DNA of 64,000 nucleotides from Escherichia coli (GTDB lineage Bacteria > Pseudomonadota > Gammaproteobacteria > Enterobacterales > Enterobacteriaceae). The stretch lies in the NCBI RefSeq assembly GCF_009931435.1, contig NZ_CP043414.1. The stretch is one strand, 5' to 3'. A model generated the notes under the pieces. That model was not told the DNA's origin. It worked only from the letters and a program-made list of their open reading frames with translations, and did no database searches. Made by a program: the position numbers and the translations under genes. This document shows positions 28,849 to 32,069 of this stretch, piece after piece. Every line of letters starts with the position of its first letter. Within the stretch, counting starts at the first letter, position 1.

Positions 28849-29139
28849 GTTACGAATCCTTGAAAACTTGTCTCAGTCAGACCAGACAGTCACACACAGT
28901 GGAAGTGTGCTAAGTATAGCCCTGATTAAACATATTACGGGTAATCGTCTGGATTATTAGGCTATTTTATTTGCCATTTTGGCCCCGGGCAGTGCTCGCC
29001 ATCCTCACGTACTTGTGTACGCTCCGGTTGCTGCGCGCTGGCCGTGACCAAACTGCCTGCAACAATAACGCCTTATAACCAGACTTACGCCCCCGCGATA
29101 CTTACGCGGAATCTTACCCTTATTTATCCATCACGGGAA

Positions 29140-30011: not shown

Positions 30012-30863
30012 TTAAGACTGCTTGGACATCGCAGCAACTTCTGCTGCAAAGTCAGTCTCAACTTTCTCGATGCCTTCACCTACTTCGAAGCGGATGAAGC
30101 CAGTCACTTCAGCGTTATGCTCTTTCAGCAGCTGACCAACAGTTTTGCTTGGTTCCATAACGAACGGCTGACCGGTCAGAGAAACTTCGCCGGTGAATTT
30201 CTTCATGCGGCCTTCAACCATTTTCTCTGCGATTTCTTTCGGCTTACCAGACTGCATCGCGATATCCAGCTGAACCTGGTATTCTTTCTCTACCACTTCA
30301 GCGGAAACGTCTTCCGGTTTGATGAATTCTGGTTTGCTTGCAGCAACGTGCATAGCGATGTGTTTAACCAGCTCTTCGTCAGCGCCTTTAGCAGCAACCA
30401 GAACGCCGATACGCGCACCGTGCTGATAAGAACCCAGAACGTCGCCTTCCAGCGCAGCAACGCGGCGAATGTTGATGTTTTCACCGATTTTCGCTACCAG
30501 CGCAACACGTTCTTCTTCGAACTGTGCTTTCAGAACTTCAACGTCAGTGATTTTGCCAGCAACAGCTGCGTCCAGAACTTTGTCTGCGAACGCCTGGAAA
30601 CCAGCGTCTTTTGCAACGAAGTCAGTCTGGCAGTTAACTTCCAGAATGATGCCGTAGTTGCCGTCGATTTTGGTTTTGATCACGCCGTCAGCAGCAACGT
30701 TGCCTGCTTTTTTCGCTGCTTTGATAGCACCGGACTTACGCATGTTTTCGATTGCCAGCTCGATGTCGCCGTTAGCTTCAGTCAGTGCTTTTTTGCAATC
30801 CATCATGCCTGCGCCAGTACGCTCACGCAGCTCTTTTACCAGGGATGCGGTAATTTCAGCCAT
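30012..30863 (-). CDS. tsf: Elongation factor Ts
   Basis: 283-aa [30 protein letters not shown]...; recognised EF-Ts. Confidence 0.97.
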
Positions 30864-30918
30864 TCTAAAATCCTCGGAGATGTGATCTGCCCGGCGTTAA
30901 ACCGCACAGATATAAAAG

Positions 30919-30946
30919 TGAAAAAGGGGGCCATATGCAGGCCCCC
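30919..30946 (-). terminator. Attenuator-type intrinsic terminator in rpsB-tsf intergenic region
   Basis: Minus strand: GGGGGCCtgcatatGGCCCCC perfect 7-bp GC stem followed by TTTTTCAC, just upstream of tsf start. Confidence 0.65.
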
Positions 30947-31030
30947 TAACCAAACGTGTACTACCTGGTCTATAAGGGCTCTCCCCCCTTCATATTTCGC
31001 GCCGCAGATGCGTTGTCTTCGCTCGCTCAT

Positions 31031-31070
31031 CCCGGTCACTTACTGATGTAAGCTCCCGGGAATTCTCGAG
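31031..31070. repeat. boxC-like imperfect palindromic repeat in rpsB-tsf spacer
   Basis: CCCGGTCACTTACTGATGTAAGCTCCCGGG palindrome; 3' arm continues into CCCGGGAATTCTCGAG. Confidence 0.5.
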
Positions 31071-31121
31071 CTTGCCGCCTTTCTGCAACTCGAACTATTT
31101 TGGGGGAGTTATCAAGCCTTA

Positions 31122-32069
<948 letters not shown>

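Follow-up and report, generated by a model that had tools for sequence, protein, structure and literature searches.

The spacer between rpsB and tsf in the Escherichia coli chromosome analysed here contains a 16-mer, CCCGGGAATTCTCGAG, in which the recognition sites of SmaI (31055), EcoRI (31060), and XhoI (31065) overlap. This raises the question of whether a polylinker-like sequence in a ribosomal operon was left by cloning or belongs to the chromosome, to which repeat family it belongs, and whether it bears on the expression of tsf relative to rpsB. The sequence was analysed as a window of 64 kb (64,000 nucleotides of one strand), to which all positions refer (Table 1). A first-pass annotation had placed the 16-mer with its three sites inside an imperfect palindrome of the rpsB–tsf spacer, and both the sequence and the coordinates were confirmed. 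It had also read the 16-mer as native, likened the palindrome to the boxC repeats, and connected it with the tsf:rpsB ratio.

Table 1. Features of the rpsB–tsf region in the 64-kb window.
Feature	Position	Strand	Remarks
rpsB (ribosomal protein S2), upstream gene	31122-31849	-	ORF translation ending FVEAE; orthologous loci annotated rpsB in RefSeq
tsf (elongation factor Ts), downstream gene	30012-30863	-	ORF; RefSeq annotation of orthologous loci
ERIC/IRU element, a MITE (miniature inverted-repeat transposable element)	30981-31108	-	128 bp here, 127 bp in K-12
ERIC central core	31024-31067	.	ERIC2 site (reverse complement) 31024-31045, ERIC1R site 31046-31067
Polylinker-like 16-mer CCCGGGAATTCTCGAG	31055-31070	+	Lineage-specific variant of the ERIC family's CCTGGGGATTCACTCG
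Palindrome, apical hairpin of ERIC	31030-31061		Arms 31030-31043 and 31048-31061, 14 nt each; inverted-repeat search
5' terminal inverted repeat CUCCCCC (mRNA sense)	31102-31108	-	Alignments A2, A3
3' terminal inverted repeat GGGGGGAG (mRNA sense)	30981-30988	-	Holds the window's private extra base
Basal stem, 5' strand AUAAGGC	31116-31122	-	Contains the second in-frame rpsB stop codon
Basal stem, 3' strand GCCCUUAUAG	30970-30979	-	Directly 3' of ERIC
Intrinsic terminator (attenuator)	30915-30947	-	AGGGGGCC-UGCAUAU-GGCCCCCU, then U-run
Rfam RF02798 match (CssrA, 'Chromosome-encoded Shigella sRNA A')	30926-31036	-	131.1 bits vs gathering 93; model 1-111 of 111

The Intergenic Spacer and Its Transcription

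The 16-mer is single-copy in the window even when up to two mismatches are allowed; approximately 0.02 matches are expected by chance, and it was present in 2 of 100 shuffles. The arms of the palindrome are 79% complementary and enclose a loop of 4 nt (31044–31047). The spacer, previously said to match the reference in length, does so to within one base: it measures 258 bp in the window, whereas K-12 MG1655 and all full-length matches in the 5,426 genomes have 257 bp. One additional C in the run at 30983–30988 is private to the window; the possibility that it is shared with RM14721 was rejected, as RM14721 has a T-to-C change instead.

The neighbouring attenuator hairpin is present as annotated, as a minus-strand terminator-like site with a stem at 30925–30947 followed by TTTTCACTTT. 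It forms the 3' end of the monocistronic rpsB mRNA, with approximately one third of transcripts reading through into tsf (PMC2834685). Transcription from the single rpsB promoter runs on through the spacer (PMC2834685), so that every rpsB mRNA contains the ERIC element described below. A consensus scan for sigma-70-like promoters at 30800–31200 was empty, which is weak negative evidence only, and an internal promoter for tsf or CssrA was rejected on this basis. In the literature on the spacer, no experiment on the ERIC copy and no mapped 5' end or RNase site was found, and the SMRT-Cappable-seq supplement has no entries for rpsB or tsf.

Identification of the Repeat

The rpsB–tsf spacer harbours a chromosomal ERIC/IRU element, and the 16-mer falls within its central core. 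Repeats of this family, also called RU-1, reportedly go back to Sharples & Lloyd in 1990 and Hulton et al. in 1991. The ERIC2 and ERIC1R primer sites, with the primer sequences taken as printed in the literature, adjoin one another in the core and match at 19 of 22 positions each, and the next-best matches in the 64 kb carry 7–8 mismatches. An nhmmer profile built leave-one-out from the remaining 18 K-12 ERICs matched 31104–30986 (envelope 30982–31108; model positions 5–123) with E = 5.6e-29 and 96.4 bits. The element is 76–85% identical to paralogues, and when it is aligned with seven of them, the 8-copy consensus includes the ERIC1R and ERIC2 primer sequences with 0 mismatches to either. In the K-12 catalogue of Petrillo et al. 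2008, the locus appears as eco:2_ERIC, from which the window differs by one substitution and one extra base; the rpsB–tsf ERIC is an already known and ordinary copy.

The general features of the family recur at this locus: a length of 127 bp in K-12, a central inverted repeat with the primer sites, 7-bp terminal inverted repeats, an intergenic position within a transcription unit, membership in a dispersed multi-copy family, and a fold made of one long stem-loop. All seven of the other copies examined are likewise intergenic between co-oriented genes. The copies detectable by blastn number 11 per E. coli genome at the median (range 2–18), the literature gives 19–21 or more for K-12, and the only sign of a second ERIC in the window is a marginal, relic-like match in the pyrH–frr spacer (E = 0.013). 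The rpsB–tsf copy departs from the family in its termini, which are CTCCCCC/GGGGGAG instead of TATAC(C/T)C/G(A/G)GTATA, in having no visible flanking TA duplication, in core substitutions that happen to make the three restriction sites, and in an additional GCUCG/CGAGC helix found only in the orthologous lineage of this locus. Among other bacterial MITEs, the Correia/NEMIS elements of Neisseria are comparable in being small, non-autonomous, bounded by terminal inverted repeats, and co-transcribed with their neighbours into long hairpins that RNases can cleave; however, the Correia elements belong to an unrelated sequence family, are targets of RNase III, and may carry promoters or IHF sites.

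The assignment to boxC is wrong. The boxC repeats (PIT/TMECO), which are intrastrand-triplex repeats with the consensus CCCTCNCCCN3-6GGGNGAGGGN3GGGNGAGGG (PMC4666352), share with the rpsB–tsf repeat the general character of short, G+C-rich, imperfectly palindromic intergenic sequences of E. coli, and nothing more specific favours membership. The published consensus matches nowhere in the window, and an nhmmer profile made from five BoxC copies in the literature finds nothing in the spacer, its best match lying elsewhere with E = 7.4. None of the 23 K-12 TMECO sites (PMC4666352 Table 1) lies near 190.6 kb, and the Petrillo catalogue, which lists BoxC too, places the element under ERIC. In addition, the rpsB–tsf repeat has no C-block/G-block/G-block arrangement and is 127 bp long, compared with 34–56 bp for boxC, so that membership in the boxC family is extremely improbable.

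Native Origin of the Restriction Sites

A polylinker or cloning scar left by engineering of the sequenced strain is suggested by the overlap of three common cloning sites within 16 nt and by the rarity of such a sequence in the window, but the distribution of the 16-mer speaks against this. Among 5,426 complete E. coli genomes of human, animal, food, and environmental origin, 4,094 carry the 60-mer at 31031–31090, K-12 MG1655, O157:H7, and dog isolates included, and 3,941 have it identical over all 60 nt; these records do not all descend from a single engineered lineage. The exact 16-mer also occurs in two other Escherichia species, represented by Escherichia sp. E1V33 and MOD1-EC7003, and the orthologues in Salmonella, Citrobacter, and Enterobacter are single bases apart, as in natural divergence. 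Furthermore, a 127-bp repeat surrounds the 16-mer, and the other copies of this repeat have CCTGGGGATTCACTCG in its place. The earlier reading of the sequence as native is upheld, and the chance that it is a scar is negligible, smaller still than that of a boxC origin.

The SmaI, EcoRI, and XhoI sites overlap by coincidence, through a few lineage-specific substitutions that arose in the family sequence CCTGGGGATTCACTCG, and among the 19 K-12 ERICs only the rpsB–tsf copy carries all three. The substitutions that create the SmaI and EcoRI sites are each compensated on the other arm of the hairpin: the G of the SmaI site pairs with a C on the opposite arm (G-C in 10 sequences, A-U in 4), and the T of the EcoRI site pairs with an A (U-A in 8 sequences, C-G in 8). 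The change that creates the XhoI site, from GCGAGTG to GCTCGAG, is lineage-specific and adds the short extra helix GCUCG/CGAGC.

Age and Distribution of the Insertion

The presence or absence of ERIC at this orthologous site is polymorphic, and filled and empty sites are scattered over the Enterobacterales; Citrobacter amalonaticus shows both states. In E. coli, 1,329 genomes have an ERIC-free spacer of 134–137 bp, the 134-bp allele being that of APEC O1 (NC_008563), for example, and the two spacer alleles divide the species into approximately 75% of genomes with the element and 25% without it. Across the order, approximately 90 of the 105 or so species spacers measured are 113–162 bp long and ERIC-free. 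The attenuator is found in filled and empty alleles alike; on the attenuator side, the sampled short-allele genomes match at 99.2%, with one at 91.9%.

The rpsB–tsf ERIC is an old insertion, common to Salmonella arizonae, Citrobacter amalonaticus, and others, and it sits where the ancestral spacer had a small hairpin. The basal-stem sequence AUAAGGC pairs with GCCCUUAU in the minimum free energy (MFE) folds of both filled and empty alleles, and most of the ERIC-free Enterobacterales spacers inspected contain the motifs TAAGG and CCCTTAT. Simple excision of the element does not account for the empty allele. Two independent insertions have occurred at different positions of the spacer, one of type 1 (Escherichia, Salmonella) and one of type 2 (Citrobacter youngae group); the latter has a clean TA duplication and reads TTA-TA[ERIC]TA-GG, compared with TTA-TA-AAC at the empty site.

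The junctions of the window copy, GATAA|CTCCCCC and GGGGGAG|AGCCC, show no clean TA duplication, and both ends have changed together relative to the TATAC.../...GTATA of the family. As the rpsB–tsf junction is not clean, the insertion is deduced from the family to which the element belongs and by setting filled sites against empty ones. The idea that the element simply inserted at the TA in the loop of the ancestral hairpin was considered and remains a conjecture, the right flank GAGCCC fitting and the left flank agreeing at only 5 of 14 positions.

Structure of the Transcribed Hairpin

The palindrome is the mere apex of a far longer hairpin of approximately 128 bp. The transcribed strand of the element folds with an MFE of −74.7 kcal/mol (z = −6.2). 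The hairpin starts 13 nt past the first rpsB stop codon (UAA 31122–31124) and ends approximately 35 nt upstream of the attenuator. The consensus hairpin of the ERIC copies comprises 35 pairs and is 96.2% paired, compared with 87% in shuffles and 37–44% in slid controls; compensatory changes are seen in 18 of the 35 consensus pairs, where 8.5 are expected, and its values were reached by 0 of 500 shuffles on any of five measures. At the base, CUCCCCC (31102–31108) pairs with GGGGGAG (30981–30988) as helix 1, with compensatory change in 5 of 6 pairs, and at the tip, the apical hairpin constitutes helix 5, in which 97.6% of cells are paired and 6 of 12 pairs show compensatory change. The primary sequence of the element is no more conserved than the remaining spacer. 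Long retention with maintained pairing could signal selection rather than neutrality; the pairing of a DNA palindrome can also persist through DNA-level processes.

Relationship to the Small RNA CssrA

The Rfam match to CssrA consists of the 3' arm of ERIC, the linker, and the attenuator hairpin. In the source paper, CssrA was detected in Shigella as a Northern band of approximately 110 nt (Peng et al. 2011); the 3' end given for it comes from a predicted terminator, and the 5' end was calculated from the size of the band alone (Peng et al. 2011). The window covers the full model on the transcribed strand, but no independent gene is visible at this locus, where the scan gave no promoter-like site. 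More probably, CssrA arises from rpsB mRNA as a fragment of processing or decay. In the source table, cssrA is labelled map/rpsB, yet the Rfam model maps to rpsB–tsf. A sub-threshold Rfam match to V_AS5 (24 bits vs gathering 96) gives only a hint that this Vibrio family is ERIC-related.

Functional Significance of the Element

The proposal that the repeat lies where the tsf:rpsB ratio is set holds as far as position is concerned, the element being situated between the rpsB stop codon and the attenuator, but it does not extend to function. ERIC is dispensable, as the short, ERIC-free spacer with the same attenuator occurs in 1,329 E. coli genomes and in most Enterobacterales; because the ERIC-free alleles keep this attenuator, the element cannot be what sets the ratio. 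Its control would instead lie with the uS2 operator in the 5' UTR, with translational coupling, and with the attenuator. We infer that the rpsB–tsf ERIC is largely a neutral passenger. At most, ERIC may modulate the processing or stability of the 3' end of rpsB mRNA, as do the Yersinia ERICs near stop codons, for which RNase E-dependent effects have been described (De Gregorio 2005; summaries in PMC2229807 and PMC10969869). As far as these summaries describe them, the Yersinia elements resemble the rpsB–tsf copy in being co-transcribed just past a stop codon as a long hairpin whose 3' arm has an internal loop rich in A/U, a candidate RNase E site (De Gregorio et al. 2005); the rpsB–tsf element differs in that E. 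coli strains without it exist. According to the Yersinia model, a terminating ribosome would open the base of the hairpin and expose the RNase E site, and such cleavage could release a fragment of approximately 110 nt, made of half an ERIC and the terminator, that would correspond to CssrA.

A stronger proposal is that the element has become a domesticated functional RNA, either as a hairpin that tunes the stability of rpsB mRNA or read-through into tsf, and hence S2:Ts, or with CssrA as a trans-acting sRNA derived from the 3' UTR. The orthologous ERIC persists in Escherichia, Salmonella arizonae, Citrobacter amalonaticus, an Enterobacter species, and Intestinirhabdus, where compensatory changes preserve its pairing, and the AUAAGG/CCUUAU basal stem beneath it is that of the ancestral small hairpin whose place it took. 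Folding of the transcribed strand is more favourable by 16 kcal/mol than that of the opposite strand, the hairpin starts near enough to the stop codon to be opened by a terminating ribosome, and the Shigella band is accompanied by a curated Rfam family. Nevertheless, the element is missing from a large number of natural genomes, as described above, and the two short-allele genomes that were aligned show no compensating change in the attenuator or the tsf leader. Its primary sequence evolves at least as fast as the rest of the spacer. Paralogues elsewhere share the compensatory pattern in both transcriptional orientations, so that the pairing is a property of the family and not a locus-specific adaptation. 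The 5' end of CssrA is a calculated one, and no CssrA target is known. Domestication is therefore unlikely. Its most elaborate form, in which one of two old alleles passing between enterobacterial species has taken over the position and stem of the ancestral post-stop hairpin, and ribosome-dependent RNase cleavage tunes the decay of S2 mRNA and releases a stable, functional CssrA, is a little less likely again.

A role at the level of DNA, as a cruciform, a protein-binding site, or a recombination hotspot, would explain the repeated insertions and the polymorphism, in keeping with two independent insertions at different positions of one spacer and with filled and empty alleles scattered across genera and within species. 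A TA-rich target by the hairpin, together with homologous recombination through the conserved flanking genes, suffices to account for the same observations, and no protein-binding motif is known for ERIC, none being given in PMC2229807 Table 1; a DNA-level role is thus very unlikely. A native ERIC with coincidental restriction sites, present as an old insertion and carried largely as a neutral passenger, is very probably the right explanation of the locus.

Implications

The vector-like sequence in this essential ribosomal operon is natural and needs no contamination flag, and the correct label for the repeat is ERIC, not boxC. By sequence, CssrA equals half an ERIC joined to the rpsB–tsf attenuator, and whether it is a free-standing sRNA gene should be looked at again. 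The two natural spacer alleles of E. coli offer a ready-made test of what a transcribed MITE hairpin does beside a stop codon, and if the element were domesticated after all, E. coli would naturally segregate two settings of S2:Ts expression.

Native origin of the polylinker-like sequence

The rpsB–tsf spacer holds CCCGGGAATTCTCGAG, a 16-mer in which overlapping CCCGGG, GAATTC and CTCGAG sites follow one another as in a polylinker, and which the first-pass annotation had read as part of a native, boxC-like repeat rather than as a cloning scar. The 16-mer, the imperfect palindrome whose 3' arm it overlaps (arms 79% complementary), and the adjoining terminator-like hairpin, followed by a U-run on the transcribed strand, are all present as described. 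The 16-mer occurs once in the 64 kb, even at two mismatches, with a chance expectation of about 0.02 occurrences.

Features of the rpsB–tsf spacer and its surroundings
Feature	Coordinates	Strand
tsf	30012-30863	minus
rpsB	31122-31849	minus
16-mer	31055-31070	
60-mer compared across genomes	31031-31090	
Palindrome arms	31030-31043, 31048-31061	
Stem of terminator-like hairpin	30925-30947	minus
ERIC element	30981-31108	
ERIC2/ERIC1R core	31024-31067	
Dispersed repeat block	30982-31112	
Leave-one-out ERIC profile match	31104-30986 (envelope 30982-31108)	
CssrA match	30926-31036	minus
V_AS5 match	30986-31109	minus
C run	30983-30988	
Other differences from MG1655	30896, 31015	
Weak ERIC profile match, pyrH–frr spacer	28985-29077	minus
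t44 match, rpsB 5' leader	31875-31961	minus

The native reading is borne out by 5,426 complete E. coli genomes, 5,424 of which matched the spacer. The 60-mer enclosing the 16-mer was found in 4,094 of them, in 3,941 without any difference, and K-12, O157:H7 and animal isolates are among those with the identical 60-mer. Two species representatives, Escherichia sp. E1V33 and MOD1-EC7003, likewise have the 16-mer unchanged, and single-base differences set it apart from the orthologues in Salmonella enterica arizonae, Citrobacter amalonaticus and an Enterobacter species. This distribution excludes an engineered origin. The spacer length, earlier equated with that of the reference, is off by one: the spacer measures 258 bp in the window, against 257 bp for K-12 MG1655 and for each of the 4,094 full-length matches, owing to one extra C in a run of six that has five in K-12 and every full-length match among the genomes compared. 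Strain RM14721 has a T-to-C change rather than this extra C, which is either private to the window sequence or a homopolymer sequencing error. Two other positions also differ from MG1655.

Assignment to the ERIC family

By its sequence, the repeat belongs to the ERIC/IRU family of miniature inverted-repeat transposable elements. In its core, the reverse complement of the ERIC2 primer runs straight into the ERIC1R primer, each site matching at 19 of 22 positions, while the next-best places in the window carry 7–8 mismatches. The surrounding block is a dispersed repeat: blastn detects it at a median of 11 places in an E. coli genome, and at 18 at most. Seven further copies (yjbE–yjbF, hsdR–hsdM, iscX–pepB, aceF–lpdA, ybhI–ybhJ, pgk–fbaA and one in an integrative element), all intergenic and between co-oriented genes, align across 127 columns, and the consensus contains both primer sequences without a mismatch. 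This very element is listed as eco:2_ERIC in the K-12 catalogue of Petrillo et al. 2008, from which the window copy differs by one substitution and the extra base. A leave-one-out profile, built from the other 18 catalogued K-12 ERICs without the rpsB–tsf copy, gave one significant match in the window, at the element itself (E = 5.6e-29). Core, full-length similarity, copy number, location, hairpin, terminal inverted repeats and site polymorphism all agree with ERIC membership; only the TA duplication is not clear-cut for this copy.

The boxC assignment proposed earlier is wrong. BoxC is the PIT/TMECO element, with the consensus CCCTCNCCCN3-6GGGNGAGGGN3GGGNGAGGG (PMC4666352); this pattern has no match in the window, the BoxC profile has none in the rpsB–tsf spacer, and none of the 23 listed K-12 BoxC (TMECO) sites lies near the locus (PMC4666352).

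Two weaker similarities were also recorded. The leave-one-out profile gave a weak match in the pyrH–frr spacer (E = 0.013, 11 bits, model positions 18–73), where the sequence GTTGCAGGCAG...CCGGAGCGTACACAAGTACGTGAGG resembles the core variant of the hsdR–hsdM copy; this may be what is left of a decayed ERIC. The Rfam model V_AS5 (Vibrio RNA AS5) aligns with the element over its full length but below threshold (24 bits, with the gathering score at 96), a similarity which suggests that this Vibrio 'antisense RNA' family was built on the Vibrio cholerae ERIC repeat.

Hairpin conservation and the three restriction sites

On the transcribed strand, the element is computed to form one long hairpin (−74.7 kcal/mol, z = −6.2), and the opposite strand at −58.9 kcal/mol. 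Eighteen ERICs were aligned in the rpsB mRNA orientation: nine are orthologues, two come from an independent insertion and seven are E. coli paralogues. The consensus structure comprises 35 pairs, with standard pairs in 96.2% of sequence-by-pair cells, compared with 87.0% in column shuffles and 37–44% when partners were slid by 1–3 columns. Compensatory double changes were found at 18 pairs against 8.5 expected, and none of 500 shuffles reached the observed value on any of five measures; the slid controls carry more weight here, since relatedness alone can let sequences outscore shuffles even where no structure exists. A DNA palindrome may keep its pairing at the DNA or the RNA level, and the paralogues are transcribed in both orientations, so that the preserved pairing characterises the family and is no evidence of a locus-specific role.

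Other family members have CCTGGGGATTCACTCG at the position of the 16-mer. The base that creates GAATTC is paired with a base on the opposite arm that has also changed (U-A in eight sequences, C-G in eight), and the base that creates CCCGGG is likewise matched by a changed partner (G-C in ten, A-U in four). The CTCGAG change is specific to the rpsB–tsf orthologous lineage, and is predicted to add a short helix, GCUCG/CGAGC, to the minimum-energy fold. All three sites occur together in only one of the 19 K-12 ERICs, the rpsB–tsf copy, and SmaI alone in three others. The polylinker look is a coincidence of a few hairpin-preserving substitutions.

Filled and empty alleles across Enterobacterales

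When species-representative genomes were scanned once with the tsf 5' end, 111 loci were found, about 105 with measurable spacers, of which about 90 are ERIC-free (113–162 bp). Short alleles of E. coli share the ERIC-free form, TAAGGCACGCTCGT(A/T)(A/C)GAGCCCTTAT, with Citrobacter and Kluyvera; in Pectobacterium there is a small hairpin related to it. The small hairpin of the ERIC-free form rests on a basal stem of CCUUAU and AUAAGG, the latter containing the second rpsB stop codon. In the ERIC-free E. coli allele (134–137 bp; loci L003 and L004 among others), a perfect 12-bp palindrome, GCTCGTACGAGC, directly follows the rpsB stop codons.

The filled form of the window (type 1), TAAGGC-TTGATAA-ERIC-AGCCCTTAT, retains the basal stem and has the ERIC in place of the small hairpin. 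The same flanks are common to three Escherichia representatives, Enterobacter sp. Cy-643, strain RIT693, Intestinirhabdus alba, Salmonella arizonae (90.6% ERIC identity) and Citrobacter amalonaticus AUH (92.9%). Pseudocitrobacter faecalis (L024; spacer 203 bp) has an internally deleted type 1 remnant, missed by blastn, which keeps both ends (CTCCCCC...GGGGAGAGCCC) and has lost the central core. In the Citrobacter youngae group (filled L035, L048 and L108 compared with L030 and L033), a type 2 form with a clean TA duplication keeps the small ancestral hairpin and lies about 15 nt downstream of the type 1 point, and is a different, independent insertion.

Of the E. coli genomes, 4,094 are filled and 1,329, including APEC O1, are empty. 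As the empty allele bears the ancestral small hairpin, excision from the filled one cannot have produced it; either both alleles are old, or recombination through the highly conserved genes on either side swaps them. The ERIC primary sequence changes as fast as, or faster than, the remaining spacer (96.9% versus 99.1% identity within Escherichia; 90.6% for both to Salmonella). In sampled genomes, blastn-detectable ERIC copies number 2–8 without the rpsB–tsf ERIC versus 9–16 with it. The long spacers at L032, L050, L089, L107 (Siccibacter/Franconibacter group, 213 bp) and L121 (a MAG, 254 bp) have no similarity to ERIC and so must hold other inserted sequences.

Transcription and role in rpsB–tsf expression

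The rpsB–tsf operon is transcribed from one promoter; monocistronic rpsB mRNA stops at the attenuator, an intrinsic terminator, and about one third of transcripts go on into tsf (PMC2834685). Control of the operon is exerted by uS2, which binds the 5' UTR, and by transcription–translation coupling (PMC10931766). The Rfam t44 (RF00127) match in the 5' leader (84.6 bits) corresponds to tff, 'putative small RNA T44' in the K-12 annotation, and lies in the region of the uS2 autoregulatory operator.

The ERIC hairpin begins 13 nt past the first rpsB stop codon and, as the element lies between the stop codons and the attenuator, every rpsB mRNA carries it. The first-pass annotation had placed the repeat where tsf expression relative to rpsB is set; the position stands, but natural absence from a quarter of E. 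coli and most relatives argues strongly against the ERIC setting that ratio. The attenuator and tsf leader are essentially alike in filled and empty alleles. In setting tsf:rpsB expression the ERIC probably plays little part or none; it would be a tolerated passenger in rpsB mRNA, and might at most modulate 3' processing or stability. The best precedent for any effect on the mRNA is found in Yersinia, where ERICs near stop codons, according to the accounts of De Gregorio 2005 in PMC2229807 and PMC10969869, reduce the amount of upstream transcript: when the ribosome terminates, it opens the hairpin and so uncovers an RNase E site in the 3' arm.

The Rfam family CssrA (RF02798, 'Chromosome-encoded Shigella sRNA A') also matches here, at 131 bits against a gathering score of 93, and by sequence consists of the 3' arm of the ERIC, the linker and the attenuator hairpin. 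Cleavage near the ERIC apex would leave this same span. CssrA is based on a Shigella flexneri Northern band about 110 nt in size, with a 3' end from terminator prediction and a 5' end set by arithmetic rather than mapping; its neighbours in the source table are map/rpsB (PMC3071730), while the Rfam model maps instead to the rpsB–tsf spacer. No promoter-like site was found in the spacer, which, together with the calculated and predicted ends, leads us to think that CssrA is probably a fragment left by processing or decay.

Significance

The rpsB–tsf element is an already catalogued, native and ordinary ERIC that had been mislabelled as boxC. ERICs have been known since 1990–91, and that they are transcribed and form hairpins is textbook knowledge; in the K-12 reference record this spacer carries no annotation, which is probably why the feature drew attention. 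The minor additions made here are the explanation of the restriction sites as compensated substitutions, the allele counts across 5,426 genomes, the evidence for two independent ERIC insertions into the same spacer across genera, and the finding that Rfam CssrA is half an ERIC plus the attenuator.
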